Source of the DNA: Solirubrobacterales bacterium
GTDB lineage: Bacteria; Actinomycetota; Thermoleophilia; Solirubrobacterales; Solirubrobacteraceae
Reading direction: 5' to 3'
Length of the DNA: 64,000 nucleotides
Assembly (NCBI GenBank): GCA_003133565.1
Contig: PKYB01000076.1
Location: 10,093 to 74,092, forward strand
Positions 3,677-52,007 of the stretch are shown here, in pieces (position 1 is the stretch's first letter; the number at the start of each line of letters is the position of its first letter). Below the pieces are notes generated by a model, which was not told where the DNA came from, made no database searches, and saw only the letters and a list, made by a program, of their open reading frames with translations. A program made the translations under genes and the position numbers.

Positions 3677-5194
3677 CTACTGCAGCTTGCCCGAGGTGCT
3701 GTAGGCCGCGATCGTCGCGCCGTCGTAGACGGTGCCGGTCGGTGCGGTCCACTGCGCGCGCCAGACGCGTCCGGCGACGTAGTTTCCACCGGCCGACCAG
3801 TAGCCCCGGGATCCGAGCTTGACGGTCAGCAAGGTCTTCCATTTACGCCCTCCGTCGGCGGAGTACTCGAGTACGACAGAGGACGAGGAAACGGTGGCGC
3901 TGGCGCCGGTGTTCCCCGACGCGGCGGTGCTCCCGCTCGTCCCGCTCGTCCCGGTGGTCGTGGTCGTGCCCGTGGTTGCGGCGCTGGTCGAGGAATCCCC
4001 GGCGGGCCGCACGAGCCCCCAGAAGGCAACCTTGGCGCCGTAGCGCGTCACGGTGAGCGGCAGACGCCAGCCGTTGAACTCAGGCTTCTTCTTGCCGTTC
4101 TTATATTCGAGCCCGGATTGGAAGCCGTAGGCGGAGTCGTCGCTCAGCAGGTATTGATCGAAGGAGACGACTCGAGGGTTCTCCCAGGCGAGGTGCTCGG
4201 CGATTGCGTCGTATTCGGCCTGCAGCGTGACCGAGACGCCGAGCAGCGGATTGGGCTTGCTTTGAATGCCGAACTCGGTGACGTAGATCGGCATGTTGGC
4301 CGCGATCGCACCGGCTGCGGCCGCACGGTTGAGCGCCGTACTGAGCCGCCCAAGGGTTGAGATCGTCACGTCATCGGGGTTCGGCGGGACCCAGTACACA
4401 CCCGTCTTGCCGGTGGGCACGGTGTAGGGGTGCTGGGCATAGCCGGCGGCCGGCAGCTTGCCGCAGCTCTTCGCCTTGACGTAGTGCGAGTTGAGGCAGA
4501 GCACCGCGCGCATAAACGCCAGCGGCGCCGGAATCCCCTCGACGCTGGAACCGACGGGCGAGGTCTCGCCCATCAGCACCTTCATCCCGTTGAAGTTGCC
4601 CGATGCCTTCAGGCCCGCATAGCCGTCGAGGAAGAGCTTGCGGTAGATCGCCGCCGAGGCTATCTGTCCTTTGCTGTACTGGGGCTCGAGGAACTGCGGC
4701 TGGTTGGGCTCGTTCCAAACCGAGTAGAGCTTTACGTAGGTACCGAACTCGCGGCCGACGGCCTCCAAGAACTGGCCATAGTCGGCTTCGTTGGGGTCGG
4801 TCACGCGCTTCTTGGCGCAGCTTGAAGCCCAGCAGGGCACCGGACCGGTCACGGTGAGCAGCACCTGCCAGTGCAGCGACTGCATCTCTGACATCAGCAC
4901 CGCGTACTGCCCCCAGTTGTAGTTGGCGGGGTTCGTCAGGTTGAGCTTCGGTTTGTGGCGCGAGTTCGGATCCGGCGCGACGTCGTTCCAGTCGAGCAGA
5001 ATCCGCACCGCGTGCACACCGAGCGACTGCATCTGGGAAATCGCAGCGGGACGTTCTGTCGCCGAGAGCAGCTGCGTCGGCGCTTCGAAAAACACGGTCT
5101 CGTTGTAGGAGGCGAGGGCCGCCGGCGCGAACGCCAGAATGGCGCTGATCGCGCCAAGACAACAGGCCAGGGCTGTGCGCTTGCGTAAGGGCAT
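3677..5194 (-). CDS. Secreted glycoside hydrolase, clan GH-A TIM-barrel type, with Thr/Ser/Gly linker and C-terminal beta-rich domain
   Basis: Signal peptide MPLRKRTALACCLGAISAILAFAPAALA; YSVWNEPN (acid/base) and IYVTEFG (nucleophile) motifs; linker TTGTTTTTGTSGTSGSTAASGNTGAS. Confidence 0.7.
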   Translation of the reverse strand: MPLRKRTALACCLGAISAILAFAPAALASYNETVFFEAPTQLLSATERPAAISQMQSLGVHAVRILLDWNDVAPDPNSRHKPKLNLTNPANYNWGQYAVLMSEMQSLHWQVLLTVTGPVPCWASSCAKKRVTDPNEADYGQFLEAVGREFGTYVKLYSVWNEPNQPQFLEPQYSKGQIASAAIYRKLFLDGYAGLKASGNFNGMKVLMGETSPVGSSVEGIPAPLAFMRAVLCLNSHYVKAKSCGKLPAAGYAQHPYTVPTGKTGVYWVPPNPDDVTISTLGRLSTALNRAAAAGAIAANMPIYVTEFGIQSKPNPLLGVSVTLQAEYDAIAEHLAWENPRVVSFDQYLLSDDSAYGFQSGLEYKNGKKKPEFNGWRLPLTVTRYGAKVAFWGLVRPAGDSSTSAATTGTTTTTGTSGTSGSTAASGNTGASATVSSSSVVLEYSADGGRKWKTLLTVKLGSRGYWSAGGNYVAGRVWRAQWTAPTGTVYDGATIAAYSTSGKLQ

Positions 5195-6128: not shown

Positions 6129-7744
6129 TCGCCGGACGCGCGTCGCCTGGCGGCCCGCAGCAACCGCTTCGCCGCAGGCTCGGGGTGCTCGGGTGTGGTT
6201 GAAGCCCTGCGGCCGTAGAGCAGCTTCAGCCAGCGCCCGATCAGCTTGGTCATCCACGCCGAGTAGGCATACATCTGCGGCTCGCGGCGGGGCATCCAAC
6301 GGGGCGTGATCAGAATCGTCTGCTGGCTCGCGAACTTGCGGATGCCGTCGGGCCCGTGCCGCACGCCGAGGCCTGACTGCTTGACGCCGCCCATCGGCGC
6401 TTCGAGTGCGAAGTAGTTGATCGCGGCGTCGTTGACGCAAACCGCGCCGACTGCCAGACGGCGCGCGACGCGCTCCCCCTCCGCGGCGTCGCGCGCAAAC
6501 ACCGCGGCGCCGAGGCCATAGCGCGAATCGTTGAGCAGCGCTACCGCGGCGTCCTCGTCGGCAACGCGCATGACCGCCAGCGTCGGGCCAAATGTCTCCT
6601 CGTTCATGCAGGCCATCGTGTGGTCGGTGTCGACGAGCAACGTCGGCTCGAAGAAGCGGCCTGACCGCTCGCCGCGGCGGTCACCGGCGAGCAGCCGCGC
6701 GCCCTTGGCAAGCGCATCGGCGACGTGGGCCTCGATCGTGTCGAGCTGACGCTCATCGGTGATCGCCCCCACATCAACCGATCCCGGGCCATGTGGCGCG
6801 CCGTAGCGCAGCGCCGCAACCTTCTCCGCGAGCTTGGCAGTGAACTCGCTATAGATCGTCGATTCGGCGTAGACGCGCTCGAGCGAGACGCAGGCCGCGC
6901 CGCTGTTCATCATCGCGTAGAACACCGCAACGTTGGCAGCCCGTTCGAGGTCCGCGCCGTCGAGCACGATCAGCGCATCCTTGCCGCCGAGCTCAAGCGA
7001 GACAGGGGTCAGGGTCTGCGCCGCGCGGAGCGCGACAGCGCGTCCGGTGGCGATCGAGCCGGTGAACATGACGAAGTCGACGAGGTCGACGAGCGCCGCG
7101 CCGGTCTCGCCACCGCCGGGCGCGACCTGGAAGACAGCGTCGGGAATGCCGCACTCGGCCCCCGCCTCGGCCATCAGCAAGGAGGTCAGCGGTGTGAGCT
7201 CGGACGGCTTGAGAATCACGCTATTGCCGGCCATCAGCGCCGGGATGCAGTCACCGAAGGAGTTGACTAGCGGGTAGTTCCACGGCCCGATTACGCCGAC
7301 CAGGCCGCGCGGCACGTAGCGCGTTACGAGGCGTCTGCCGGCGAGGAGCGGCGTGTGCGCAAAAAAGCGCTGTTCTTGGAGGTAGCGCGGCGCGTTACGC
7401 GTCCAGAACGACAAGGCGGCAAGGCCGTAGCCCAAGTCGTACAGCTGCGCGTCCTCGTAGGGCTTGCCGGTCTCGCTGATCACCGTCTCGATGACGCGCT
7501 CGGAATTCTCTGAGAGCCAGCGACGCAGCGCTCCGAGGATCACCGCACGTCCGCCCACGCCGAGCTCGGACCACGCCGGCTGCGCCGCGCGCCCGCGCTG
7601 CGCCAGCAGCTCGAGCCCAGCATCGTCAACGCATGCCACGCTCGCCACATACGCACCCGTCGCCGGGTTGCGCACTTCAATCGAGCTGCCGCCGACCGCC
7701 TTGCCGTTCGGAGCGATCAAGGCCTGCTTCTCGGCACCTTCCAC
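6125..7744 (-). CDS. NAD(P)-dependent aldehyde dehydrogenase (succinate-semialdehyde dehydrogenase-like)
   Basis: ALDH motifs FTGSIATGR, LELGGKDA, EETFGP; 539 aa. Confidence 0.9.
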   Translation of the reverse strand: MEGAEKQALIAPNGKAVGGSSIEVRNPATGAYVASVACVDDAGLELLAQRGRAAQPAWSELGVGGRAVILGALRRWLSENSERVIETVISETGKPYEDAQLYDLGYGLAALSFWTRNAPRYLQEQRFFAHTPLLAGRRLVTRYVPRGLVGVIGPWNYPLVNSFGDCIPALMAGNSVILKPSELTPLTSLLMAEAGAECGIPDAVFQVAPGGGETGAALVDLVDFVMFTGSIATGRAVALRAAQTLTPVSLELGGKDALIVLDGADLERAANVAVFYAMMNSGAACVSLERVYAESTIYSEFTAKLAEKVAALRYGAPHGPGSVDVGAITDERQLDTIEAHVADALAKGARLLAGDRRGERSGRFFEPTLLVDTDHTMACMNEETFGPTLAVMRVADEDAAVALLNDSRYGLGAAVFARDAAEGERVARRLAVGAVCVNDAAINYFALEAPMGGVKQSGLGVRHGPDGIRKFASQQTILITPRWMPRREPQMYAYSAWMTKLIGRWLKLLYGRRASTTPEHPEPAAKRLLRAARRRASGD

Positions 7745-40295: not shown

Positions 40296-41141
40296 ATGGC
40301 CGGCTTTAGTCGATGGTCATGTATCGATGTTCATAATCAGCAGTGCCAATCAAAGTCGCCGGATGCGCGCAATCCGCGAAACACCTACCTGCGAACGCGC
40401 CGCCATGCATGGCCTGCCGCCGGGCCCTCAACGCGTCAGCGGCGATCTGGCGGTTACCTCGCAGGCGAGGGTGGCTACACGCTGACCGAGATGCTTCTCG
40501 CCAGCCTGATGGCGATTCTCGTACTCGGGACGGCCGTCACGCTGTTCGTCACCACGCAAAAGGATGCTACGAGCGCCATCGCGAAGGCCGACTCGATCCA
40601 GACCGCCCAAGCGGGCTTGCACCAGATGGACCAGGTGCTGCGCCAGGCCTACGCGGTCGAGTTCCCAACCAGCACCGACGATGCCGGGTGCCTCGAGACT
40701 GCGGGCGCCCAACCCTGTAATCAGGTCGACGTGCTCGCACGGCTCGCGGGTTCCGATTACGCCGTTGGGGTCAACTGCTCCGTCGCCAGCGCGTCGATCA
40801 CCGGCGACCAAGCCTGCTGGCAATACGAGTGCTCGGCGTCCGCCACGACGGCGGCTGGAACGACATGTAACGCGAGTGGCCCGAACCTGATCTCGAGCAA
40901 GCTCGTCATCGACGACGTCACCAATGGGACGACGTCCAGTCCAGTCTTCTCCTTCTGCTACGCGAGCACGTCAACCGTCAACACCAGTCGGTGTGCCACC
41001 GGCGCCTCACGTCCGACCTCGGCGACGGTGACGATCGACACGCCCGCCGCGGGCACGCTGTCGCGTACGAGCGGCGGCGATCCGTCGACCGTAGTGCTGA
41101 CTGACAACGTGTACATGCCTAACCTCGACTTCAACGCGTGA
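40296..41141 (+). CDS. Prepilin-type minor pilin P1, PilW/GspJ-like; start codon unresolved
   Basis: A class III signal lies at 40464-40540: GEGG then YTLTEMLLASLMAILVLGTAVTLF (Gly-1, Glu+5). The mature part has eight Cys. The only canonical in-frame start is ATG 40296, which would give a 60-aa leader. Confidence 0.7.
   Translation: MAGFSRWSCIDVHNQQCQSKSPDARNPRNTYLRTRRHAWPAAGPSTRQRRSGGYLAGEGGYTLTEMLLASLMAILVLGTAVTLFVTTQKDATSAIAKADSIQTAQAGLHQMDQVLRQAYAVEFPTSTDDAGCLETAGAQPCNQVDVLARLAGSDYAVGVNCSVASASITGDQACWQYECSASATTAAGTTCNASGPNLISSKLVIDDVTNGTTSSPVFSFCYASTSTVNTSRCATGASRPTSATVTIDTPAAGTLSRTSGGDPSTVVLTDNVYMPNLDFNA
40310..40334 (+). repeat. Direct repeat TCGATGnTCAT x2 in the AT-rich spacer upstream of the first pilin operon
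   Basis: tcgatggtcat gta tcgatgttcat, followed by cataat at 40332-40337. Function unknown. Confidence 0.6.
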
Positions 41142-41896
41142 GCCCTCGGTCACGATCGGTCGCGCGAGGGGGTGCGGTCGCGCGCGCGCCAAGCCTGCGC
41201 GAGGAGCGCGGAGTCACGATGATCGAAGTCCTCCTCGCCATGGTGGTGCTCGTCGTCGGTCTGCTCGGCGTTTTCGGGACACTGACCGGCGCAAGCAACT
41301 CGATCGGGGCGGCCGAACGAGCGGCCGTCATGGCGCAAGCTGGGCAGCAGGCGCTTCAGGCGGCCGAGGCGGTCCCGTATGCCGACCTCGCAGACAGCAG
41401 TGCTCCAGTCCAGACGAGCGCCACTAGCACGACGAACCCCACCTACTACCTGTCGGGTTGCACCGCGGGCGCGTGCACTGCCTACCAGTGGAACCCGTCC
41501 AGCACGAGCAGCGCGGAGTCCCTCGCGATCGACACGACAGCAGGCAAGGTCGCGCCCCTCAGCACAGCGGTGGTGCCCGTGCCCTCGACGAGCGGATGCA
41601 CCGCGACGGCGACCGCCAACTGTCAGATCACCGTCTCGGTCTATGTATTCGTCACCAACTCCACCGACTCGATCTGCTCACAGTCGGGCGTTACCTGCGC
41701 TTCTACGACCAGTTACAAGCGGGTGACCGTGGCCGTGAAAAACACGGGATCAGGCGGGCCACTGAATCCCACCTACCTCTCGACGTTTGTCAGCAACAAC
41801 GTGGGCGGCTTGACGGACCCCCTCGACGGAGCGACATCGAGCACCTCGCTGACCAACTGCCTCGATGGGACGACCACGGTCGCATGCACAAACTAA
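41138..41896 (+). CDS. Prepilin-type minor pilin P2, PilV/GspI-like
   Basis: The leader ends in REERG and is followed by VTMIEVLLAMVVLVVGLLGVFG. The GTG start overlaps the P1 stop (GTGA). Confidence 0.8.
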   Translation: MSPRSRSVARGGAVARAPSLREERGVTMIEVLLAMVVLVVGLLGVFGTLTGASNSIGAAERAAVMAQAGQQALQAAEAVPYADLADSSAPVQTSATSTTNPTYYLSGCTAGACTAYQWNPSSTSSAESLAIDTTAGKVAPLSTAVVPVPSTSGCTATATANCQITVSVYVFVTNSTDSICSQSGVTCASTTSYKRVTVAVKNTGSGGPLNPTYLSTFVSNNVGGLTDPLDGATSSTSLTNCLDGTTTVACTN

Positions 41897-43227
41897 CGCG
41901 CCCACGACAGCTCGGCGCCGGCGTCCGCGCGCTCCGCCTGGGCGCAGGCGTCCGACGCGCCGCAGACGACGAGACGGGATTCATCATGATCGTCGCCATC
42001 TCGATCTTGACGGCGCTCCTGGTCCTCATCGTCGCTGTCGCCTCCTCGGCCCAACATGTGAACGCGACGACGACGCGGGCGGAGGCGTCCGGCGCGGCGC
42101 TCGCTAGCGCAAACGCTGGTGCCCAGGTCGCGCTGTTCAGGCTCGACACCACCGGTACGCTCACCGGCGCCACCGGCTCGATGGGCAACGGCGCCACGTA
42201 CGACTACGCGGTCACGACACTTTCCTCCTCGAGCTCCCCGTGCACGGGACTCTGGGTCCAGAACTCGACGCAGTCGGTGCAGCAGGATTGCATCACCTCC
42301 GTCGGCAGCGTCAACGGCGTCAATGCGCAGGTGCAGGCCCGTGTCGCCGGATACACGCCGACGACCTCGCTCTATCCCATCAACGGGGTCTTCGCGGTTG
42401 ACGGCTTCTACGCCGCCGGCAGTCCCACCGGCGCGTTTAGTCTCGGCTCCAACGGCGCGATGAACCTCACCAACGCGACGCTCCCCGATATCAACGGCGA
42501 TCTCTTCTACCAAGCCGGGCAGCTCACGCAGTCGCAGAACAGCAACCAGCAGTGCTCGAGCCCTTGCACTCTCGTTCAAGACTCCGCCGCGATCACCGTG
42601 CCATCCGTGTCGCCCAGCGCTTACGCGAGCGCCGCGACGACAAACAATGACGGCGCGATTAGCTGGCCGTCCAACCTGAGCTACAGCTCGAGCACTAACT
42701 CCGTCACGAGCAACGGGTCTAACAACGCGACGGTCTACCTGCCGGCCGGCACGTACTACTTCTGCAGCCTCGCGCTTGGAAACGCCACGACAATACAAGC
42801 GACTGGAAGCCCGGTGAAGATCTACATCGACTCGTCCTCAGACTCGTCGACCAGCTGCCCGTCGGGCTCGGGAAACCTCACGGGCGACGACGTCACGGTG
42901 ACAGCCTTCGGCGGGACGGCAAGCAACCTCCAGCTCTTCCTCTACGGGCAGCCCGGTTGCACGGGGACGAACTGTCCGGCAGATCTGCCGCAGAACACCG
43001 CGACCTTCACCGCGGATGTGTTCGCTCCCTACTCATACGAAAACGACAACCCCCTCACGGTGACTGGAGCCATGGTCATCGGGTACGTGTATGAGAACAC
43101 GCTGAACGTCACCTACCAGGGACCGGCTGCCAGCGGGAGCTCGACGGGCGGCACCAACGCGGATTTCTTCCCCGCGCGCGAGGCGATCTGCACGCCGGCT
43201 TCGACGCCGACGACAGGTAGCTGCTGA
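41884..43227 (+). CDS. Prepilin-type protein P3, PilX/GspK-like (no Glu+5), 447 aa
   Basis: Leader MHKLTRPRQLGAGVRALRLGAGVRRAADDETG, then FIMIVAISILTALLVLIVAVASS. The body is Ser/Thr/Asn/Gly-rich, with GTYYFCSLALGNATTIQATGSPVKIYIDS...NLQLFLYG...VTGAMVIG. It overlaps P2 by 13 nt. Confidence 0.75.
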   Translation: MHKLTRPRQLGAGVRALRLGAGVRRAADDETGFIMIVAISILTALLVLIVAVASSAQHVNATTTRAEASGAALASANAGAQVALFRLDTTGTLTGATGSMGNGATYDYAVTTLSSSSSPCTGLWVQNSTQSVQQDCITSVGSVNGVNAQVQARVAGYTPTTSLYPINGVFAVDGFYAAGSPTGAFSLGSNGAMNLTNATLPDINGDLFYQAGQLTQSQNSNQQCSSPCTLVQDSAAITVPSVSPSAYASAATTNNDGAISWPSNLSYSSSTNSVTSNGSNNATVYLPAGTYYFCSLALGNATTIQATGSPVKIYIDSSSDSSTSCPSGSGNLTGDDVTVTAFGGTASNLQLFLYGQPGCTGTNCPADLPQNTATFTADVFAPYSYENDNPLTVTGAMVIGYVYENTLNVTYQGPAASGSSTGGTNADFFPAREAICTPASTPTTGSC

Positions 43228-43279
43228 GACGTTTTCGCGCGGCCGATAAGCCCCACCGCGCTTCGCGATCAAGTCCCGC

Positions 43280-43303
43280 GAACGCCGCGTGCACGCGGCG
43301 TTC
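43280..43303. other. Perfect 24-bp palindrome in the P3-P4 spacer (hairpin or protein-binding site)
   Basis: GAACGCCGCG TGCA CGCGGCGTTC, 53 nt after the P3 stop. No T tract follows. Confidence 0.5.
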
Positions 43304-43466
43304 GACCGTCGAGACTTCGGAGCTGAGCTGATCGCCGGCCGCCACGCCGTCGCCGCCGGTGGCTGTTGTGAGTGCCGGGGCACGCGAACATCCGTCCAGG
43401 CGCGGGTGGCGCAACGGCCGGTACAAACTCAACGGACCGCGACTTTGCGCCGATGAGTTGTTGTCG

Positions 43467-45416
43467 ATGGCCGATTTTCTAGAGCTTGTTCGCGCGCGCC
43501 TTCTATGGCTCCGCCGCGTAGCGGCGTGGGCTGGCCGCGAAACCGGTGACACGATGATCGAGGTGGTCGTCGCGGCGATGATCGTCGCGCTGATCGCGGC
43601 GGCGACGTTTGTTGGGTTTGGCGCGGTCGCACACGTCGCTGGCGCCCAGCGCCATCAGGTCCAAGCGAACGAGCTCGCACAACAGGACGAGGAGCGGCTG
43701 CGCGGCTTGAGCGTCACCGAACTCGCCGCGGTCGAGCCGGCGGGCAGCACGACCCTCGCGAGCGCGCAGTTGTACGGCAACTCGAGCTACCAGGAGACGG
43801 TCGACAGCGAGGTCTACACGATCACTTCCGTGGCCAAGTTTGTCTCGGCCTCGAGCGGTGGCCTGTCGTGCACGACAGGCGGCTCGAGCACGGCCGATTA
43901 CGTCGAGACGTCGTCGACGGTGACCTGGGGCACGAACAATGACGGACGACAGCCGGTGGTCGAGAACAGCCTGCTCAGCCCGCCGAGCGGTGGTGGGTTG
44001 ATTACCAGCGCTACGAACGCCAACGGCGCCGCCCTGGCCGGGGCGACGATCTCCATCGAGGGGCCCGGATCGATCACCAACACACAGACGCTCACAACCG
44101 ACGCCAACGGCTGCGCCGTGTTCGCCGGCCTCGTCGGCGGCACCTACACGGTGACTGCCTCCGACACCGGGTACGAGACGGATACCGGAGTCACAAACCC
44201 AAGCCAGTCGGTGATTCTCGTCGCCGGCGCGACGCAGACGCTTCAGGCGTTCCAGTTGGGCCAGTCCTGGATCCAGGCAACGTTCCTGACCGCGATCAAT
44301 GGCGCAGCGCTGAGCCCGATCAACTGGGACAGCTTCAGCATCGACAACACCAACTACACGCAGAGCTACGGCACCGTCGGCACCTTCACCTCGCCGGTGT
44401 CCTCAAACTCGCTCTATCCCGCCACCTACAGTGCCTACGCGGGCACGTGCAGCGCCGATGACCCCGGCGGCTCGACCGGGACCACGGGGCTAACGGGGCA
44501 AACCGGAGCCACCTACACCGATCCGACAGTCGGAACAACCGCCGGCGCGACGGGGAGTGTCGCGGTGATTGTGCCGACGATGCTGCTGAAGCCGACCACC
44601 TCCTATACCCCGGCGCTCAGCACTACCTACAACGACGACTACAACTCGAGCAACCCCGCTAGCGACACCAACGACTCCCAGCTCAGCTACAGCTCGGGCG
44701 GGGCCACGATCACCTACGCCGGGGGGTGGAAGTACTCAGGGGTGAACTCCACGGTCCCGGGCTACTCCACGACCGGCGACTACGACAACGACGAGACCGA
44801 CAGCACCGCCAGTGGCGCCAGCGTGACGGTCACCTTCATTGGCACGAGCATCAGCGTGCTCACTACGGAAGCGAGCGCCAACGGGATCGCCGCCGTCTCG
44901 CTCAACAGCGGCACGAGCACCAACTACCCCGACACCGCCGGCTCGACGAATCGCCAGCAGACGCTCTACACCTCTCCGGCGCTGACCTACGGGACGAACA
45001 CGCTCAAGATCACCGCCAACTCGGGGAGCGCGATCTCGATTGACGCGTTCATCGTCGGCAACAGCGGCGGCGGATCGACGACGACAGCGGTGACTGGCTC
45101 GCCGCTGCCCTACACCGTCTCGACCTACGACTCCTGCCCGACCCCGGCGTTCCGCACGCTACCCACAGCGCCCACGCCGGTCACCGTCAGCTCGTCGACC
45201 GTCTACCCGGTCCAGGCTCCCTACGGCAACTCGGTCCAGGTTTGCTTCGCAAACACCGCCACCAACACGAACACGGGCGCCGTGCCCTCGGGGGCGACAC
45301 AGATCTCGAACACGAACCTCGATGGCACCACGGTCACGTCCCTCACGCTCCCGGTGACGAGCGGCGCCACGGGTGCCAGTGCCGTATTCAGCAATACCGG
45401 GACGTGTCCGACATGA
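43467..45416 (+). CDS. Prepilin-type protein P4, PilV/GspI-like N-terminus with large modular extension (649 aa)
   Basis: Leader MADFLELVRARLLWLRRVAAWAGRETG, then DTMIEVVVAAMIVALIAAATFVGFG. There is a carboxypeptidase-regulatory-like segment (ANGAALAGATISIEG...DANGCAVFAGLVGGTYTVTASDTGYE). There is also a C-terminal CBM/lectin-like pattern (ITYAGGWKYSG...ASVTVTFIGTSISVLT...IAAVSLNSG...QQTLYTSPALTYGTNTLKIT...ISIDAFIVGN). Confidence 0.75.
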   Translation: MADFLELVRARLLWLRRVAAWAGRETGDTMIEVVVAAMIVALIAAATFVGFGAVAHVAGAQRHQVQANELAQQDEERLRGLSVTELAAVEPAGSTTLASAQLYGNSSYQETVDSEVYTITSVAKFVSASSGGLSCTTGGSSTADYVETSSTVTWGTNNDGRQPVVENSLLSPPSGGGLITSATNANGAALAGATISIEGPGSITNTQTLTTDANGCAVFAGLVGGTYTVTASDTGYETDTGVTNPSQSVILVAGATQTLQAFQLGQSWIQATFLTAINGAALSPINWDSFSIDNTNYTQSYGTVGTFTSPVSSNSLYPATYSAYAGTCSADDPGGSTGTTGLTGQTGATYTDPTVGTTAGATGSVAVIVPTMLLKPTTSYTPALSTTYNDDYNSSNPASDTNDSQLSYSSGGATITYAGGWKYSGVNSTVPGYSTTGDYDNDETDSTASGASVTVTFIGTSISVLTTEASANGIAAVSLNSGTSTNYPDTAGSTNRQQTLYTSPALTYGTNTLKITANSGSAISIDAFIVGNSGGGSTTTAVTGSPLPYTVSTYDSCPTPAFRTLPTAPTPVTVSSSTVYPVQAPYGNSVQVCFANTATNTNTGAVPSGATQISNTNLDGTTVTSLTLPVTSGATGASAVFSNTGTCPT

Positions 45417-46219
45417 GCTGGCGCGAGCGACTGTCCGACGAGCGGGGCTACACGCTGATCGAGTTGGTGATGGCTACCGCGGCCGGGCTGGTCGTCTGCG
45501 CGGCGGCGCTTGCGATCGTCGTCTCCTCGCTCAGCTTCGCCAACGGCGACAGCGAGCGTATCGACTCGAACCAGCAGGGCAGCGTGGCGATGGAGAAGAT
45601 CGTCCAAGCGCTCAACTCGAGCTGCGTGGTGGGTTACGGCATTTCGCCGATCGTCGGCGCAACCGGGGCGTCCTCGGCGACGGGGAGCACCGCGGTAGCA
45701 CCCAGCTCGGGGGACACACTCACGTTCTTCAGTTCCCTCAGCGACTCGCCGAATATCAACCCGAGCGAGATCAGCGTCTACCTGAGCTCGCCCGGAGGAC
45801 CACTCGTCATGGCGACCTATCCCGCACAGGCTTCAACCGGCGCAAGTGGCGCCACCACCTACTCCTACGCCGCCACGCCGGCCACCTCCTTCACGCTGAT
45901 CGGGCACGCCGCTGCGCCGGGAACGACTCCGACGCAGGCCTCGACGACGCCGATCTTCACCTATTACGGCTACAACGTCGCCGCTGGCACGCTCACGCAG
46001 CAGATCTCGCCCAGCCCGTACTCGACGAGCCCGCTCGGTGCGAGTGGGGCGTCGGGCACGGTCGAGGTCGGCATCAATTTCCAGTCCCAGCCGGGCGACG
46101 GAAACAACCAGCTCGGAGGGTCCGCTGACCTGTCGGACAGCGTCGTACTGCGGCTCACGGCTGCCGCCAATGGGACCACCGGAACCACTGGAGCTACGAC
46201 CCCGAAACCATGTTCGTGA
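45413..46219 (+). CDS. Prepilin-type minor pilin P5, PilW/GspJ-like
   Basis: MSWRERLSDERG, then YTLIELVMATAAGLVVCAAALAIVV. The ATG overlaps the P4 stop (ATGA). Confidence 0.8.
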   Translation: MSWRERLSDERGYTLIELVMATAAGLVVCAAALAIVVSSLSFANGDSERIDSNQQGSVAMEKIVQALNSSCVVGYGISPIVGATGASSATGSTAVAPSSGDTLTFFSSLSDSPNINPSEISVYLSSPGGPLVMATYPAQASTGASGATTYSYAATPATSFTLIGHAAAPGTTPTQASTTPIFTYYGYNVAAGTLTQQISPSPYSTSPLGASGASGTVEVGINFQSQPGDGNNQLGGSADLSDSVVLRLTAAANGTTGTTGATTPKPCS

Positions 46220-47946
46220 ACACGCTCAAGCGAGGACTCTCGTCGCGCGACGAACGGGGCTTTTCCCTGATCGTTGCGATCGTCGTGCTGTCGGTCGCCA
46301 CGCTGCTGCTGTTCGGCGCGGTCGACGCCGTCTTCTACAACACCGGTCCGACCCGAGCCGACCTCGATCAGAAGCGCGCGCTGCTCGCTGCGGATGCGGG
46401 GCTGTCGGTCTACGACTCGGCGCTCAACAGCAACCCGAACTTCTGGGAGAGCTGTCCCGTGTCGGGCGCGGCGGGCGCGACCGGGACGACCGGGACCGCG
46501 GTGACCGTGCCGGGCTCGACGAACGACGGCTCGATCGAGACATACACCTACGAGAACCTCCCGGCGACCGGTCAAACCGGCTGCAGCGGGGCCAACCCGA
46601 TCAGCACGATGATCGAGAAGAGCAACACCCCCGCGAATGGCACCTTCCGTGTGAAGTTCACCGGAACCTCGCAGCCCACAACCGGAACGGCGCGGGCCCC
46701 GATCACGCGGACGCTTGTCGCGCAGTTCAATGCGGCGAACTTCCTGCAATACGTGTACTTCACCAACTTCGAGATCCTCGATCCGGCGGCCACGGGCGAC
46801 AGCGTGACGGGATGCTCCGTCTACTACTGGACCTCTCCGGCTCCAGCGACCGGCCAGAACCGCAACGGCAACTGCGGTGGCGCGATCAACTTCATCACCG
46901 GTGATGTGATCAACGGCCCCATGCACAGCAACGATGACGTCTCGATCAGCGGCTCACCGCAGTTCGGAAGCACCACCTCTGACGCTGTCGAGACACCCGG
47001 GTTCTATTCGAACAACGGTACGCCGACGACGACGTGCACGGGCTGCGACATCGCTGGGACGCTCAACACCGCCGCGCCGACACTCCAGCTACCGCCGAAC
47101 GACCTGCAGTTGCTCCAGGTCGCCGATGGCAACGTCGCCACACAGACCAATGGCTGTTACACAAAAGCCGGCTGCGTGTTCACCGGCCCGACGACGATCG
47201 TGCTCACCGGGAGCACGTTCACGGTCACGAACGCCAGCTACAACGGCGGCGCGGCGACGACAGGGCTCTCGCCATCAAACGGCGTCATCTACGTCACCAA
47301 CGCGAGTGGCGGTTGCACCCCCACCAACACGTACACGCCCTACATCGTGAACTCAAGCGCTTCCTATAGCAACGCAGATAACACCGGCTGCGGCAATGCG
47401 ACCGTCTCGGGGACGTACTCCAACTCGCTGACGATCGGCACCGACAACGACATCATCATCAACGGCAACATCACGCCAACCGGAGTTACCGTCAACAGCA
47501 GCAGCGGCGGCACGCCGCCGACCCCTAGCGGAACAGCGCTGCTCGGCTTGATCGCCAATGACTTTGTGCGGGTCTACCACCCACTGTCCGGGACGCGCCC
47601 GTCAGCCTCGTTCGCTTCATGCCCGAACCCCAACACCAACGCCACGGGCTCGCTCACCAACCTCTACGTCTACGCCGCGATCCTCGCGGTGAACCACTCG
47701 TTTATCGTCGACAACTTCGACTGCGGCACGACGCTCGGCGACCTCTACGTCTACGGCGTCATCGCGCAGAACTTCCGCGGCCCTGTGGGAACCGAGAGCG
47801 GGGGCACGGTGGTTTCGGGCTACACCAAGGGCTACTACTACGACACGCGCTTCCAAGCACTGTCGCCGCCCTACTTCCTCGACCCTGTGAGCGCGGGTTG
47901 GGAAGTGAACCGGGTGACCGAGTGCGACAGCAGTACGGGCTGTTGA
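46210..47946 (+). CDS. Prepilin-type protein P6, PilX/GspK-like (no Glu+5), 578 aa
   Basis: MFVNTLKRGLSSRDERG, then FSLIVAIVVLSVATLLLFGAV. It has a long Thr/Gly/Asn-rich body with NGPMHSNDDVSISG and C-terminal GVIAQNFRGPVGT...GYTKGYYYDTRF...PPYF. It overlaps P5 by 10 nt. Confidence 0.8.
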   Translation: MFVNTLKRGLSSRDERGFSLIVAIVVLSVATLLLFGAVDAVFYNTGPTRADLDQKRALLAADAGLSVYDSALNSNPNFWESCPVSGAAGATGTTGTAVTVPGSTNDGSIETYTYENLPATGQTGCSGANPISTMIEKSNTPANGTFRVKFTGTSQPTTGTARAPITRTLVAQFNAANFLQYVYFTNFEILDPAATGDSVTGCSVYYWTSPAPATGQNRNGNCGGAINFITGDVINGPMHSNDDVSISGSPQFGSTTSDAVETPGFYSNNGTPTTTCTGCDIAGTLNTAAPTLQLPPNDLQLLQVADGNVATQTNGCYTKAGCVFTGPTTIVLTGSTFTVTNASYNGGAATTGLSPSNGVIYVTNASGGCTPTNTYTPYIVNSSASYSNADNTGCGNATVSGTYSNSLTIGTDNDIIINGNITPTGVTVNSSSGGTPPTPSGTALLGLIANDFVRVYHPLSGTRPSASFASCPNPNTNATGSLTNLYVYAAILAVNHSFIVDNFDCGTTLGDLYVYGVIAQNFRGPVGTESGGTVVSGYTKGYYYDTRFQALSPPYFLDPVSAGWEVNRVTECDSSTGC

Positions 47947-47972
47947 CGGCCGCCCTCGGGGCGGCTGTCAAC
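47942..47972. terminator. Strong hairpin shared by convergent P6 and histidine-kinase genes
   Basis: GTTGACGGCCGCCC tcg GGGCGGCTGTCAAC: 14-bp stem with one mismatch. It spans both stop codons. Confidence 0.55.
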
Positions 47973-50889
47973 TAGCTGCTTCGAGGCGCTCGATCACGCC
48001 CTCGAACCCCGCGCGCACTCGTTCGCTGGCCTTTGTGAACCTCGCTGCGAGCTGATCGCAGGCCCCTGCGTCGGCGTCGCCAGCGGCGGCCTCGAGCTGG
48101 GCAAGCACGTCGGCGAGCGTCCCTGCGCCGAGCGTCGCGCAGCTTGACTTCATCCGGTGGGCGATTCTTGCGAGGGCTTGGTGATCGCGAGCCGCTGCAG
48201 CCTGCCTGACCTCCTCGACCTCCGGGTCGAGTTGCTCGAGGAACAGGCGGACGATGCGACCGAGCGCGGCCGCCCCGCCGACGTCCTCCTGCAGCGCCGC
48301 GAGGGCACCGCGATCGATACCCGAGTCGTCGAGCGCGGCGCCGAACGTCGGCGCCGTCGCCTGCTCGGAGCGCGTGCCGTCCGCCGGGCCTTGCGACGGC
48401 GCGCGGGTGGCGACGAGCGCACGCCGGATCGCGTTCGCGAGCGCCGCCAGCGTCACCGGTTTGGCGACAAACTCGTCCATACCGGATTCCTGGCAGCGTT
48501 CGTAGTCCTCACGCAGCGCGTTTGCGGTGACGGCGACGATCGGGATCCTCGAGCCGCCGCCTTGCTCCCGCTCGCGGATCGCGCGGGTTGCCTCAAAGCC
48601 GTCCATGACCGGCATCTGACAGTCCATCAGCACGGCGTCGTATTCGTCGTGCGCGAGCGCGTCGACCGCCTCCTCCCCGTTCTCGACGGCGGTGGCGCGA
48701 AGGCCGAGCCGCGACGCCTGGCGCATCAGCACCTGCTGATTGACGGGGTTGTCCTCGGCGATCAGCACCCGCAAGCCGCCGAGATCCCCGGGGGGGGCCT
48801 CGGACGCCTGCGCCGCGGGTAGCGGCCCAGCGGTGGGAGCGCCCACGCTAGCGAGCGCCTCATAGAGCGCCGCCTGCTTGACCGGCTTGGCGACGACAGC
48901 ATCGAAGACCTGCTCCGCCGCGTAGCTCGCCGCAGCGGCCACCTCGCCCGTCGCCTCGCCGGCGTCGATCAGCGCAATGACAAACAGGCCGTCCTCGCCG
49001 GCGAGCTCGCGGAGTTCGCCGGCCAACCCGGGAACGCTCGCCTCGCCGGCGTCGATCGCGATGATCGCGACATCGAAGCGCTCGTCCTCGGGCGCGGCGG
49101 CGAGGGATTCGATCGCTGCAGCGGCTGTCGTGGCCCGTGTGCTCACCATCCCCCACGCGCGGACGTAGCGCTCGATCGTTTCAGCGGCGCTCGCCGAGCT
49201 CTCCGCCACCAGCACGCGCAAAGTCCGGCCTTCGACGTTGGGCACGCGTGCCGCCTCAGCCGGTTGATCCCCGAGTGCGAACGGCAGGCTGAAGGAGAAA
49301 GTCGAGCCGCGGCCTACGCCCGAATCGACCACCAGTTCGCCACCCATCAGTTGCACGAGTCGAAAGGAGATGGCGAGTCCGAGTCCGGTCCCACCGTGCA
49401 CTCGCGAGAAGGTGCCGTCGAGCTGGGTGAACGGCTCGAACAGCTTCTCGACCGACTCGGCCGGAATTCCGACGCCGGTGTCGCTGACGGCGAACTGCAC
49501 GGCGAGATGATCCTCGCCCGTCGTCGGCTGCAGCTCGGCGCGAATCGCCACCTCGCCTGAGTTGGTGAATTTGACCGCGTTGCCAACGAGGTTGACGAGC
49601 ACCTGGCGCAGCAGCCGCGCATCGCCGACGACAGACTCCGGCACGCGAGGATCAACAAAGCACGACAGCGAAAGGCCCTTCTGTTGCGCCGGCAGCGCAA
49701 CGAGGTCGGTTATCCCCTCGACGATCGCGGCCAGATTGAACTCGCTGGCCTGGCTCTGGACCTTGTTGGCCTCGAGTTTCGAGAGGTCGAGGATATCGTC
49801 GATGATTCCCAGCAGCTGGCCTGCAGAAGTGCGCGCGATTGTTGCCAATTCGCGTGACCCGTCCGACAGATCCGAATCAAGGATGAGATCCAGACTGCCG
49901 ATGACTCCATTCATAGGAGTACGTATCTCGTGGCTCATCGTGGCAAGAAACTCGGACTTGACAACCGACGCTCGCAGTGCCGCATCTCGCGCGTCAGCGA
50001 GCCGGTGCTCGGCCGCTCGGCGCTCGGTGACGTCGCGCACGAACGTGACGAACAGCTGATGCCCGCTGGCGTCGAGCGAGTCGATCGTCGCCTCGAGCGG
50101 GAACTCGCTGCCGTCGCTCCGCTGACCGACGCCTGCCAGACGACGTCCACGGAAACGCTTCGGATTGGCCTGCAGCCGTTCGAGAATCTGCGCCCAGACC
50201 TCACGATCGCGCCAGGGGACGAAGGTCTCGAGCTTCTCGCCGATCGCGGCCCGGGTAGTCCGGTAAAGGCGCTCGGCCGAGCGGTTAAGATCGACGATCG
50301 TACCGTCGGCGTCGACAGTCAGGATGGCGTCCACACTCGCCGCCATCACGGCGCTCTTCATCTCTTCACTCGCCTTGAGCGCACCCTCTGCGGCCTTGCG
50401 CCTGGTTGCGTCGCGCATCACGACACAGCAGCCGAACAGCTCATCGGCACCGGCGCTGAAAATCGGCTCGGCATTGACATCGAGCCAGCCCACCGTGCCA
50501 TCCGCGAAAACCCTGCCGCAAGTCATCGCGTGCCCCTTGCCTGTGCGCAAAACGACGCGCGAGGGCAGTCCGGCGACGTCCTGGGGCGAGCCGTCCTCAG
50601 CGATCAGGCTGTTGACGATCTCCTCGAACGGCATCGAGGTGTGCTGCTCCAAGGTGAAGCCCGTAATCTCGACCGCCTGCTGATTGCAGTAGACGGGATG
50701 ACCATCCTTGTCGTAGACGAGCACGCCCTCGTGCATGGCCCCGAGCAGCATTTCGGCAAACTCGGCCGAGAGGACCGCCGGGGAGCTAGCTGCAGGCGCC
50801 TTCGCGGCCGGCTTCTTGCTGGCAGGGGAGCTGGAGTCAGGCCTTGCGCGAGGCATCACAACCAGGATAGAACGGGCGGCGGGCGTCAC
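47968..50889 (-). CDS. Cytoplasmic hybrid sensor histidine kinase (2 PAS, HisKA, HATPase, pseudo-receiver, receiver, HPt)
   Basis: FLATMSHEIRTPMNGVIG (H box); GGTGLGLAISFRLVQLMGG; receiver AVLMDCQMPVMDGFEATRAIR; HPt IAHRMKSSCATLGAG. There is no N-terminal TM segment. Confidence 0.9.
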   Translation of the reverse strand: MTPAARSILVVMPRARPDSSSPASKKPAAKAPAASSPAVLSAEFAEMLLGAMHEGVLVYDKDGHPVYCNQQAVEITGFTLEQHTSMPFEEIVNSLIAEDGSPQDVAGLPSRVVLRTGKGHAMTCGRVFADGTVGWLDVNAEPIFSAGADELFGCCVVMRDATRRKAAEGALKASEEMKSAVMAASVDAILTVDADGTIVDLNRSAERLYRTTRAAIGEKLETFVPWRDREVWAQILERLQANPKRFRGRRLAGVGQRSDGSEFPLEATIDSLDASGHQLFVTFVRDVTERRAAEHRLADARDAALRASVVKSEFLATMSHEIRTPMNGVIGSLDLILDSDLSDGSRELATIARTSAGQLLGIIDDILDLSKLEANKVQSQASEFNLAAIVEGITDLVALPAQQKGLSLSCFVDPRVPESVVGDARLLRQVLVNLVGNAVKFTNSGEVAIRAELQPTTGEDHLAVQFAVSDTGVGIPAESVEKLFEPFTQLDGTFSRVHGGTGLGLAISFRLVQLMGGELVVDSGVGRGSTFSFSLPFALGDQPAEAARVPNVEGRTLRVLVAESSASAAETIERYVRAWGMVSTRATTAAAAIESLAAAPEDERFDVAIIAIDAGEASVPGLAGELRELAGEDGLFVIALIDAGEATGEVAAAASYAAEQVFDAVVAKPVKQAALYEALASVGAPTAGPLPAAQASEAPPGDLGGLRVLIAEDNPVNQQVLMRQASRLGLRATAVENGEEAVDALAHDEYDAVLMDCQMPVMDGFEATRAIREREQGGGSRIPIVAVTANALREDYERCQESGMDEFVAKPVTLAALANAIRRALVATRAPSQGPADGTRSEQATAPTFGAALDDSGIDRGALAALQEDVGGAAALGRIVRLFLEQLDPEVEEVRQAAAARDHQALARIAHRMKSSCATLGAGTLADVLAQLEAAAGDADAGACDQLAARFTKASERVRAGFEGVIERLEAAS

Positions 50890-50930: not shown

Positions 50931-52007
50931 GTGACCACGCCTCAACGTCTACGCATCCTGCTCGTCGAGGACGACGCCATCTTTGCCGCGGTGACGGCCG
51001 AGGTCATGCGTGAGCGCGCCCTCGTACGCTGGACGCCGACAGCAGAGTCGGCGCTTGCGGCAGCCGGCGAGAAGGACTGGGACCTGATCATCACCGACAT
51101 CGAGCTGCCGGGGATGAGCGGACTCGAGCTGGTGATGAAGATCAAGGCCGCGCAGCCGCACGTGGCGACGCTGATCCTCACCGGTCACCGCAGCTTCGAC
51201 AACGCGGTCGAGGCGATCCGTGTCGGCGCCGACGATTTCCTCACCAAACCGGTCGATCGAGCGACGCTGATTGCCAAGATCGACGAGCTCGCCGCGCTGA
51301 GCGCGCGCCGCAAGGCGTCGAGCAGCGCCTCGGTGCTGGCGATTGGTGCGCACCCCGACGACATCGAAGTGGGCTGCGGCGGCATCCTGCTAAATCACGT
51401 GGCACAAGGCCACGAGGTCGCGGTGCTCGTGCTCACCGGCGGCGATGTCAGTGGCATGCCCGCCGAGCGCGCCCGCGAGGCGAGCCGCGCCGCCGAGCTG
51501 ATGTCGGTGCGCCTGTTCCACGCCAATGTCGCCGAAGCCAGCGTGGCCATGGGCAGCGCGACGATCAACGAGATCACACGCGTGATCGACGAGGTCAACC
51601 CCGACACCGTCTACACCCACAGCGAGCACGACTTCAACCAGGACCACCGCAACACCCACCAGGCGACACTGGCGGCTGCGCGCAGCGTTCCCCGGCTCTT
51701 CTGCTACCAGAGCTCCTCGAGCACCGTCGACTTCCACCCCAACCGTTTCGTACCGGTCGACGAGTTCATGGACCGCAAGCTCGCAGTCCTTCGTTCCTAC
51801 ACCTCGCAGGTCCGCCAGCGCCGCTATCTCGACGCCGAGCTGCTACTCGCCACGAGCCGCTACTGGAGCCGCTACGGCCAATCCCGCTTCGTCGAACCGC
51901 TCGAGGTGGTGCGCGAGGCCGTGTCCGAGGGTGCCGAGGACCGCACCGACGAAGCCCGCGTCAATTTCGAGGCGGCGCTCGACATCGAAGCGCTCGACGC
52001 CGTCTAG
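50931..52007 (+). CDS. Response-regulator receiver domain fused to a PIG-L/LmbE-family deacetylase
   Basis: REC: LRILLVEDDA...DLIITDIELPGMSG...LILTGH...DFLTKP. PIG-L: VLAIGAHPDDIEVGCGG...HSEHDFNQDHRNTH. GTG start, 41 nt from the divergent kinase start. Confidence 0.85.
   Translation: MTTPQRLRILLVEDDAIFAAVTAEVMRERALVRWTPTAESALAAAGEKDWDLIITDIELPGMSGLELVMKIKAAQPHVATLILTGHRSFDNAVEAIRVGADDFLTKPVDRATLIAKIDELAALSARRKASSSASVLAIGAHPDDIEVGCGGILLNHVAQGHEVAVLVLTGGDVSGMPAERAREASRAAELMSVRLFHANVAEASVAMGSATINEITRVIDEVNPDTVYTHSEHDFNQDHRNTHQATLAAARSVPRLFCYQSSSSTVDFHPNRFVPVDEFMDRKLAVLRSYTSQVRQRRYLDAELLLATSRYWSRYGQSRFVEPLEVVREAVSEGAEDRTDEARVNFEAALDIEALDAV

Follow-up and report, generated by a model that had tools for sequence, protein, structure and literature searches.

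Organization of the locus

Six consecutive open reading frames (ORFs), designated P1 to P6, lie on the plus strand between positions 40296 and 47946 of the window, that is, of the whole 64-kb stretch of DNA analysed, which comes from an uncultured actinobacterium of soil in the order Solirubrobacterales. They form two three-gene sets separated by a spacer of 239 bp (43228–43466); a slash marks the predicted prepilin cleavage site.

40296..41141, + strand: P1, putative PilW/GspJ-like (W-type) minor pilin of set 1, mature G/YTLTEM
41138..41896, + strand: P2, putative PilV/GspI-like (V-type) minor pilin of set 1, GTG start, motif G/VTMIEV
41884..43227, + strand: P3, putative X-type cap pilin of set 1, without Glu5 (G/FIMIV)
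43279..43304, no strand: perfect 26-bp palindrome, candidate terminator hairpin or operator
43467..45416, + strand: P4, putative V-type minor pilin of set 2, modular, G/DTMIEV
45413..46219, + strand: P5, putative W-type minor pilin of set 2, G/YTLIEL
46210..47946, + strand: P6, putative X-type cap pilin of set 2, without Glu5 (G/FSLIV)

All six ORFs are intact, with a G+C content at third codon positions (GC3) of 0.77–0.86. In set 1, the GTG start of P2 overlaps the stop codon of P1 (GTGA), and P2 and P3 overlap by 13 nt; in set 2, P4 and P5 share an ATGA overlap, and P5 and P6 overlap by 10 nt. The ORFs, their junctions, the spacer and its palindrome had been described in an earlier reading of the same DNA (the original prediction), and all were confirmed from the sequence. 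The P4–P6 set lies between genes for a HAD hydrolase and for a hybrid histidine kinase.

The start codon of P1 is uncertain, as no ATG, GTG or TTG occurs from 40296 up to the predicted cleavage site, which follows the Gly codon at 40473–40475. The P1 leader would be 60 aa long, with a GC3 of 0.58 versus 0.83 in the body of the gene, and the leaders of its homologues measure 10–27 aa. For P2, the GTG start at 41138 is backed by three homologous loci with the identical 4-nt overlap and leader. Public gene callers place the P2 start at ATG 41219, past the cleavage site.

The palindrome is located 51 nt past the P3 stop codon. It is single-copy in the window, and none of 100 shuffles gave one. Folding as an RNA hairpin yielded -27.5 kcal/mol (z -2.5), and among the related loci the element was present solely in L001 and L002, which are identical to this one. 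This genome-specific palindrome may serve as a terminator hairpin or an operator.

Prepilin signals and similarity to known pilins

All six frames of the window were scanned, within ORFs of high GC3, for a Gly with five residues and then an uncharged hydrophobic stretch behind it; exactly P1 to P6 were returned, plus one unrelated membrane segment at 24007. The N-terminal motifs are G/YTLTE, G/VTMIE, G/FIMIV, G/DTMIE, G/YTLIE and G/FSLIV, with Glu at +5 in four of the six proteins and Val at +5 in P3 and P6, the third gene of each set. These signals are as the original prediction quoted them, and the Glu5 rule holds across the families: Glu is found at +5 in 81 of 82 V, 47 of 47 W and 0 of 58 X proteins. 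PilX and GspK are likewise without Glu5 (PMC7541494).

The original prediction had proposed profile searches as a check on the minor-pilin reading. These gave weak but consistent matches to pilin, PilV, GspJ and GspK N-termini, with the curated cutoffs mostly unmet. P1 has weak HpsC and GspJ N-terminal matches. P2 matches TIGR02532 (17.5, cutoff 16.3), N_methyl (21.1, cutoff 21.2) and the PilV profile TIGR02523 (E 1.3e-6, under the curated cutoff), the last of which is also matched at E<=0.01 by 25 of the 36 members of the P4 family. P5 reached 18.0 bits against N_methyl and P6 an E of 0.061 against GspK, and PilX_N was matched by none of the six proteins in the Pfam and NCBIfam searches. The P6 family comprises 1998 representative clusters and is already labelled PilX by JGI, with 377 matches named 'Tfp pilus assembly protein PilX'. 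Taken alone these profile matches are marginal; the minor-pilin identity is settled by orthology with operon-embedded genes (see below).

Profile-profile comparison pairs the P1 and P5 families (E 2e-13) and links the P2 family with the N-terminus of the P4 family (E 2.3e-12 over 155 columns); the cross pairs give about 1e-8. This supports the gene order proposed originally, W-V-X followed by V-W-X. The N-terminal 69 aa of P3 are homologous to the P6 family (probability 98%), and the two sets are related at the family level only.

Residues 183–259 of P4 form a CarboxypepD_reg/prealbumin-like domain (PF13620, E 4.9e-10), with further beta-rich sequence beyond, so that P4 is a modular pilin in which a pilin module is joined to this domain. 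P3 consists of a pilin module and a ComZ-like beta-solenoid, and its homologues carry DUF7305. The AF2 models of P3 (pLDDT 75) and P6 (pLDDT 78, pTM 0.73) both combine a long N-terminal helix with a small sheet and with a beta-rich domain, which is large in P6. In a Foldseek search the P3 model matched Thermus ComZ (6QVI; E 1.9e-6, probability 1.00) and then ice-binding beta-helices, and shows a predicted fold that is ComZ-like, of the beta-solenoid tip-pilin type. The P6 model had no significant fold match in the PDB; at the sequence level, ComZ (E 0.071) is the sole PDB entry matched by the profile of the P6 family.

Pilus genes near the locus and in related genomes

The original prediction that the 64 kb hold no pilus machinery was confirmed. 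Pfam scans found no PilB/T, PilC, PilD or PilMNO gene among the 30 flanking genes across the window, and tblastn with Solirubrobacterales Pil proteins gave no match in it. A pil operon immediately outside the window, which had been named as evidence against the prediction, was found on neither side: the gene calls for about 8–10 kb past each window end contain no such machinery. A major pilin gene is likewise absent from the window, including its six-frame signal scan, and from these 8–10 kb.

Comparison of gene neighbourhoods, also proposed originally, located equivalents of P4–P6 within full pil operons. Homologues of P4-P5-P6 are colinear (V-W-X) in all 79 Solirubrobacterales genome loci, and in 35 of them they are embedded in a type IV pilus cluster, with the major pilin gene on one side and pilD on the other, the typical order being pilB-pilT-pilC-major pilin-V-W-X-pilD-pilM-pilN-pilO. 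Pfam identified T2SSE+MshEN, T2SSE, T2SSF, Peptidase_A24, PilM_2, PilN and PilO in locus L054 and an N_methyl major pilin in L077. The minor-pilin reading is thus supported mainly by comparative genomics. The X proteins of remote and operon-embedded sets fall in separate clades, no sampled genome has both kinds of locus, and the Glu5 pattern is also kept in the clade with the set remote from the pil operon.

Against a relative of 84% identity (dS 0.22–0.31), the dN/dS values of P4, P5 and P6 were 0.38, 0.17 and 0.32, respectively; neighbouring genes gave 0.05 (ABC-F), 0.19 (histidine kinase) and 0.36 (HAD). These ratios show purifying selection on set 2. For set 1, dN/dS was 0.21–0.34 versus L095, a pair in which dS is saturated. 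Set 1 is missing from the 84%-identity relative and present in L003 and L012 as a 3' relic only, and other genomes retain triads of its type with all three genes intact. Set 2 is the core set of the lineage; set 1 differs from it and has a patchy distribution, being missing or a relic in close relatives. Since P1 lacks a canonical start close to its signal and relatives have lost the set, set 1 may be dispensable or partly impaired.

Two probable alternative minor-pilin sets

We interpret the six genes, with a probability of about 0.75, as two alternative minor-pilin (tip/priming) sets for a type IV pilus of the monoderm type. Each set would comprise one PilV/GspI-like and one PilW/GspJ-like subunit together with a cap without Glu5 of the PilX/GspK/ComZ kind, in which a pilin module is joined to a large predicted beta-solenoid, ComZ-like for P3 according to its model. 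We infer that all three prepilins enter the membrane and would be cleaved after the conserved Gly by a PilD-type prepilin peptidase, and that their N-terminal helices would hold them together as a small complex topped by the Glu5-less X. This complex would seed polymerisation of the major pilin on a PilB/PilC/PilMNO machine, presumably encoded elsewhere in the genome, and would remain at the filament tip, where the X beta-solenoid and the extra V domains (CarboxypepD_reg-like in P4) may provide a binding surface for adhesion or DNA. Set 2 is the ortholog of the pil-operon set of other Solirubrobacterales, probably relocated here to its place between the HAD and histidine kinase genes, and set 1 may be an accessory that gives the same machine an alternative tip. 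Because related genomes hold the same set in a complete pilus operon, the locus is best read as a pilus-tip module of ordinary type that has been relocated, rather than as a new type of system. Known priming complexes usually contain four minor pilins and PilY1, and the three genes per set found here count against this reading.

It is unlikely that the pilus machine has been lost and that the triads act without a filament, as surface proteins on an uncleaved N-terminal helix or as proteins assembled by another apparatus. The lack of machinery inside about 80 kb would fit such a loss, as would the separate clades of remote and operon-embedded X proteins, the unusual Asp at +1 in V subunits of the remote clade, and a PilT profile search with at least 8000 matches, in which 0 of the 120 matches listed fell on any of the contigs on which a remote set is known. 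However, the V and W proteins of the remote clade strictly conserve Gly-1 and Glu+5, to about 44% identity, with no obvious reason unless peptidase processing and filament assembly continue; Solirubrobacterales very commonly carry PilT and full pil clusters, and remote minor-pilin sets are normal elsewhere (PMC7541494).

The similarity of P3 and of the P6 family to ComZ raises, by analogy, another idea, namely that the sets serve a DNA-uptake (competence) pilus instead of adhesion or motility, with the ComZ-like X proteins as tip DNA receptors, a role that has been put forward in Thermus. In ComZ, two lysines are implicated in DNA binding. The protein binds DNA and is needed for transformation, not for piliation (PMC6561018). 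We give this idea the same low probability as machine loss, as the beta-solenoid fold carries no DNA-binding signature and has ice-binding proteins as its other structural neighbours, the operon-type loci with pilT and pilMNO resemble general-purpose type IVa pili, and the Ig/prealbumin-type domain of P4 is adhesin-like. It is very improbable that one of the sets, or both, is decaying and no longer functional, given six intact ORFs with intact signals and a GC3 of 0.77–0.86, the dN/dS values of both sets (0.17–0.38 in set 2) and the intact set 1-type triads elsewhere, even though set 1 is lost or a relic in relatives and P1 combines the absent start with a leader of low GC3.

Comparison with known systems

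The original prediction implied that orphan, doubled and oversized triads were strange, and here it did not hold, as precedents exist in Myxococcus, Streptococcus sanguinis and Thermus. Like GspI-GspJ-GspK and FimU-PilV-PilW-PilX (with PilY1), the sets have class III signals, translationally coupled genes, Glu5 in the smaller subunits but not in the last and largest one, and weak NCBIfam matches to PilV, GspI/XpsI, GspJ and GspK below curated cutoffs. They differ in having neither a fourth (FimU/GspH-like) gene nor a PilY1 gene, in subunits two to four times larger, and in the extra domain of X, a beta-solenoid here and an alpha-helical insert in GspK.

Myxococcus xanthus has three minor-pilin/PilY1 clusters, alternative sets away from the main pil cluster, each of them dispensable on its own and all thought to share a single machine and a single major pilin (PMC7541494). 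That host is a diderm with four pilins and PilY1 per set (PMC7541494), while here the two sets adjoin each other and a machine in the same genome is presumed. Oversized modular pilins are widespread (PMC8179133). In Streptococcus sanguinis, also a monoderm, PilB and PilC (with PilA) join a pilin module to a bulky module for binding, which the tip is thought to display (PMC8179133, PMC9934059); P4 likewise carries its CarboxypepD_reg/prealbumin-like module. The grafted domains are vWA and lectin in that species versus Ig-like/prealbumin-like and beta-solenoid here, and its genes lie inside the pil locus, unlike P1–P6.

The likeness to the competence-associated pilins of Thermus thermophilus, ComZ with PilA1-PilA3 (6QVI), lies in the cap fold and the gene context. 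ComZ is a protein of about 550 aa with a GspK-like pilin module and an ice-binding-protein-like beta-solenoid, its gene is directly 3' of small minor-pilin genes, and a location at the pilus tip has been argued (PMC6561018). In contrast, P3 and P6 have no detectable sequence identity with ComZ past the N-terminal helix, the P3 model matches it while the P6 model has no significant fold match, each set has three genes instead of four plus ComZ, and the host, a monoderm actinobacterium, has no secretin.

The six prepilin-like genes and their signals

All six consecutive open reading frames of the original prediction (P1 to P6) were recovered on the plus strand with exactly the predicted overlaps, and each of the six carries the proposed class III signal, a basic leader ending in Gly and then an uncharged hydrophobic stretch of about 20 residues. 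They form set 1 (P1 to P3) and set 2 (P4 to P6), each with one V-type (PilV/GspI-like), one W-type (PilW/GspJ-like) and one X-type gene (PilX/GspK-like cap minor pilin without Glu at position +5).

Prepilin-like genes of the two sets and the element between them
40296-41141, plus strand: P1, W-type; Glu at +5
41138-41896, plus strand: P2, V-type; GTG start, GTGA overlap with P1; Glu at +5
41884-43227, plus strand: P3, X-type; 13-nt overlap with P2; Val at +5
43279-43304: 26-bp perfect palindrome, CGAACGCCGCGTG/CACGCGGCGTTCG, between the sets
43467-45416, plus strand: P4, V-type; Glu at +5
45413-46219, plus strand: P5, W-type; ATGA overlap with P4; Glu at +5
46210-47946, plus strand: P6, X-type; 10-nt overlap with P5; Val at +5

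A pattern scan of the high-GC3 ORFs (GC3, the G+C content of third codon positions) in six frames of the whole window returned P1 to P6 and one unrelated membrane segment. The GC3 of 0.77–0.86 across the six genes indicates that they are coding, and the mature proteins, with much Ser, Thr, Gly, Ala and Asn, few charged residues and 3–14 cysteines, have a composition typical of exported proteins. The leaders of P2 to P6 are 10–31 aa long, and that of P1 reaches 60 aa from its sole canonical start. No ATG, GTG or TTG lies between 40296 and the P1 cleavage site (40296-40475, 60 codons), GC3 is 0.58 in this leader versus 0.83 in the body of the gene, and the leaders of the homologues comprise 10–27 residues; P1 may start at a non-canonical codon (CTG at 40389, for example), have an exceptionally long leader or be impaired. 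For P2, the GTG start at 41138 is supported by three homologous loci that share its 4-nt overlap and leader, and public gene calls begin this gene downstream of the cleavage site.

The 239-bp spacer between the sets does contain the predicted perfect palindrome, which is unique in the window, begins 51 nt past the P3 stop and folds as RNA into a hairpin of 11–13 bp (-27.5 kcal/mol, z -2.5). It is absent from all of the related loci, so that a conserved regulatory site was rejected; it could act as an operator or as a terminator that separates the sets. Scans for promoter and terminator consensus sequences revealed nothing above shuffle expectation.

Profile searches with the individual proteins

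Direct profile searches gave a mixed answer to the original prediction, since P2 passes the prepilin signal profile TIGR02532 (17.5, cutoff 16.3) and the curated cutoffs for PilV, PilX_N and GspK were not reached. P2 also fell 0.1 bit short of the N_methyl profile PF07963 (21.1, cutoff 21.2), to which P5 scored 18.0 bits, under the same cutoff; P1, P3, P4 and P6 were below the cutoffs of PF07963 and TIGR02532 or had no match. P1 showed weak matches to the N-terminal regions of HpsC and GspJ, and P3 had no match in these direct searches. Against the PilV profile TIGR02523, P2 scored 28.9 bits (E 1.3e-6; curated cutoff 52.2 bits) and P4 had an E of 0.15, and 25 of 36 N-termini from the P4 family matched it at E<=0.01 (best 2.8e-9); P2 and the P4 family are PilV-like proteins, not PilV equivalogs. 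Neither cap protein, P3 or P6, matched PilX_N (PF14341) at E<=1, and P6 matched GspK (NF037980) with an E of 0.061 and 12.8 bits (cutoff 130). P4 additionally carries a clear CarboxypepD_reg/prealbumin-like domain (E 4.9e-10). From direct profile evidence alone, the minor-pilin reading is only plausible.

Orthologous sets in type IV pilus clusters of relatives

P6 had 377 word-index matches, all of them in Solirubrobacterales metagenome bins and many already named "Tfp pilus assembly protein PilX" by JGI, a COG-based label. An exhaustive search enlarged its family to 1998 representative clusters (at 50% identity), with only faint DUF4900 matches. When the species representatives of Solirubrobacterales were scanned with the P6-family alignment, we obtained 79 loci among the best 80 of 239 matches (locus handles such as L054 refer to the related genome loci compared), and tblastn detected P4, P5 and P6 homologues, in that order, in essentially all 79. 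In 35 of them the V-W-X set is embedded in a type IV pilus cluster with the usual order pilB, pilT, pilC, major pilin, V, W, X, pilD, pilM, pilN, pilO. The L054 cluster, for instance, encodes T2SSE with MshEN, a second T2SSE, T2SSF, an A24 peptidase, PilM_2, PilN and PilO according to Pfam, and in L077 the major pilin matches N_methyl and shows the classic N-terminal sequence EKGFTLIELLVV. Because of this colinearity and the operon-embedded loci, we consider P4 to P6 the orthologues of the minor-pilin block in a complete type IV pilus system of the monoderm type that is capable of retraction. It is the comparative evidence that decides the predicted minor-pilin identity, and with the ORFs and signals the orthologous operon sets indicate that the features first noticed are real and that their identities were correctly assigned.

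Tad/Flp-type pseudopilins were rejected, given that just faint Flp matches were found on the hydrophobic segment of P2 and that the orthologous sets lie in PilB/PilT/PilC/PilMNO clusters.

The loss of Glu5, proposed as the hallmark of the cap subunit, was verified: Val occupies +5 in P3 and P6, their partners keep Glu, and the pattern is family-wide, with Glu in 81 of 82 V, 47 of 47 W and none of 58 X proteins. It is equally strict in the clade of the remote sets, those located away from the pil operon in a HAD/histidine-kinase context. The Glu5-less PilX/GspK signature has been described before (PMC7541494). Compared with a relative at 84–93% protein identity (dS 0.22–0.31, unsaturated), dN/dS was 0.38 for P4, 0.17 for P5 and 0.32 for P6, showing that set 2 evolves slower than neutral and faster than neighbouring core genes, as expected for surface-exposed subunits.

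Two further observations were made in these loci. The V genes of L003-L024, L039, L040, L060, L066 and L083, as well as that of the window (43545-43550), encode Asp at +1 (G/DTMIEV), which is unusual for the N-methylated first position; the operon-embedded V pilins have Phe, Met or Leu there. In L047, L054, L077 and L079, the pil cluster apparently lies between alaS/mltG/aroE-like and aroC/aroK/aroB/aroQ-like genes, as judged by N-terminal sequences only.

Origin of the two sets and variation of the locus

A recent tandem duplication of the sets was discarded, as BLASTP of the counterpart proteins was insignificant beyond the N-termini and hhalign joined the X families over 69 N-terminal residues only. 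Profile comparison paired P1 with P5 (E 2e-13) and P2 with the pilin module of P4 (E 2.3e-12 over 155 columns), and the cross pairs were worse, at about 1e-8. Since these pairings beat the cross pairs, the proposed order of W-V-X followed by V-W-X is real.

In relatives with the same HAD and kinase genes on its flanks, the locus is variable.

Arrangements at the locus in related genomes
One P4-6-type set: L003, L006, L096 (84% P6 identity)
Two tandem P4-6-type sets: L007/L013, L014, L016, L023
P1-3-type set on the other side, across the HAD gene: L095
Remnant 3' end of a P3-like gene (…YADYFPAFQTTCAPASTPQSGGG, then stop), just upstream of V on the HAD side: L012 7390-7521, L003 about 7500-7560

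The P3-like remnant shows that set 1 was deleted in L003 and L012, both one-set relatives. The P1-3-type family is small (30 matches), and sets of this type are also found by themselves in unrelated surroundings. In view of the variation among relatives, we regard set 2 as the core set and set 1 as an accessory one that is gained, moved and lost.

Structural models of the cap proteins

AlphaFold (AF2) models were built from family alignments for P3 (pLDDT 75, pTM 0.58) and P6 (pLDDT 78, pTM 0.73). With moderate confidence, both display a pilin fold in which a long N-terminal helix is followed by a small sheet and then a large beta-rich domain, past which both finish with a single strand. The helix spans residues 27–90 in P3, before a four-strand sheet, and 16–74 in P6, before strands. 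Foldseek matched the P3 model to ComZ of Thermus thermophilus (6QVI, E 1.9e-6, probability 1.00), with ice-binding beta-helices next; the whole P6 model gave nothing significant, its top match being PilA of S. sanguinis (probability 0.21), ahead of ice-binding proteins. At the sequence level, P3, P6 and the V-family profile had no significant match among solved structures, the only hits being pilin N-termini and ComZ, which was the sole and weak match (E 0.071) of the P6-family profile to PDB sequences. The P3 relatives carry DUF7305.

Genomic surroundings and the search for the pilus machinery

Pfam analysis of thirty other genes of the window indicated ordinary actinobacterial housekeeping.

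Other products in the window identified by Pfam
Metabolism and DNA maintenance: NucS, fused E2-E1 2-oxoglutarate dehydrogenase, FbiC, citrate synthase, aconitase, pyruvate kinase
Others: ABC-F protein, HAD hydrolase, hybrid histidine kinase, PIG-L-fused response regulator

No PilB/T, PilC, PilD or PilMNO was detected by Pfam in the window, and the gene calls of public contigs that include the identical sequence and reach about 8–10 kb past each of its ends contain no pilus genes. The description of the sets as orphaned, with no complete pil operon just outside the window, therefore holds for roughly 80 kb.

A PilT profile search had at least 8000 matches, and among the 120 matches listed none was on a contig with a known remote set. 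In a neighbour-joining tree of the X proteins the operon-embedded and the remote sets formed separate clades, and among the genomes sampled (best 80 of 239 matches) none had both kinds. The pattern in the tree fits the relocation of a single set.

Next to P6 lies a gene for a hybrid PAS-HisKA-HATPase-REC-Hpt kinase (47968-50751, minus strand), divergent from a fusion of a receiver to a PIG-L/LmbE-type de-N-acetylase (50931-52007, plus strand). No functional link can be claimed for this pair, because it is conserved only in the clade, where the other neighbours are equally conserved. Elsewhere, a 505-aa ORF with coding-like GC3 at 3677-5194 (minus strand) has no Pfam match and is a gene in public annotations, and just past the right end of the window, in L093 (2570-6659), there are two adjacent genes with Peptidase_A4 fused to Ig-like repeats.

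Proposed role and alternative explanations

We propose that a prepilin peptidase cuts P1 to P6, and that each set would then form a small helix-bundled complex with the Glu5-less X subunit as its cap. Such a complex would prime the polymerisation of the major pilin and may stay at the tip as a binding surface, with tip location and ligand both predicted. The two sets could be alternative tips for one machine, by analogy with Myxococcus, in which any one of several remote minor-pilin sets suffices (PMC7541494).

It is also conceivable that the pilus machine was lost and that the P1 to P6 proteins act alone. The strict conservation of the cleavage-site and Glu5 features speaks against such a loss, which nevertheless keeps some probability because the searches described above located no machine for this genome and the tree derives from the best 80 of 239 matches. 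A more elaborate version, which we regard as very unlikely, is that the HAD/kinase clade lost its pil operon and that selection maintains the V-W-X triads as a surface complex independent of any machine, or that an assembly system not yet described serves them. The unlike sets would then be exchangeable cassettes at a hot spot, and the neighbouring hybrid kinase and PIG-L response regulator might switch between them. We favour tip sets that serve a type IV pilus machine, and a system of a known kind, not a new one, accounts for the features of P1 to P6.

Comparison with known pilus systems

Our results indicate that a complete retractile type IV pilus is common in genomes of the Solirubrobacterales, which are abundant in soil and peat and barely cultured, and that its tip set can move out of the operon, be duplicated or gain a second, unlike set. 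This should be of use for reading the genomes of the order and for picking candidates for adhesion or DNA-uptake studies. The P6 family, with its about 2000 clusters, and the DUF7305-bearing P3 family are both large and mostly unnamed, and both can be interpreted as monoderm type IV pilus cap pilins, with a structural link to Thermus ComZ that is supported by the fold match for P3 and tentative for P6. ComZ combines a GspK-like pilin with a beta-solenoid resembling that of ice-binding proteins, is encoded beside the minor pilins pilA1-3 and has been argued to cap the pilus (PMC6561018); by its model, P3 would likewise consist of a pilin module and a ComZ-like beta-solenoid. P4 follows the "modular pilin" design, known to be widespread among bacteria (PMC8179133). 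The largest family, that of P6, already carries the label PilX in existing pipelines; what is new here is limited to the lineage, the variable remote locus and the occurrence in a monoderm of three-gene sets whose caps are predicted to be ComZ-like.
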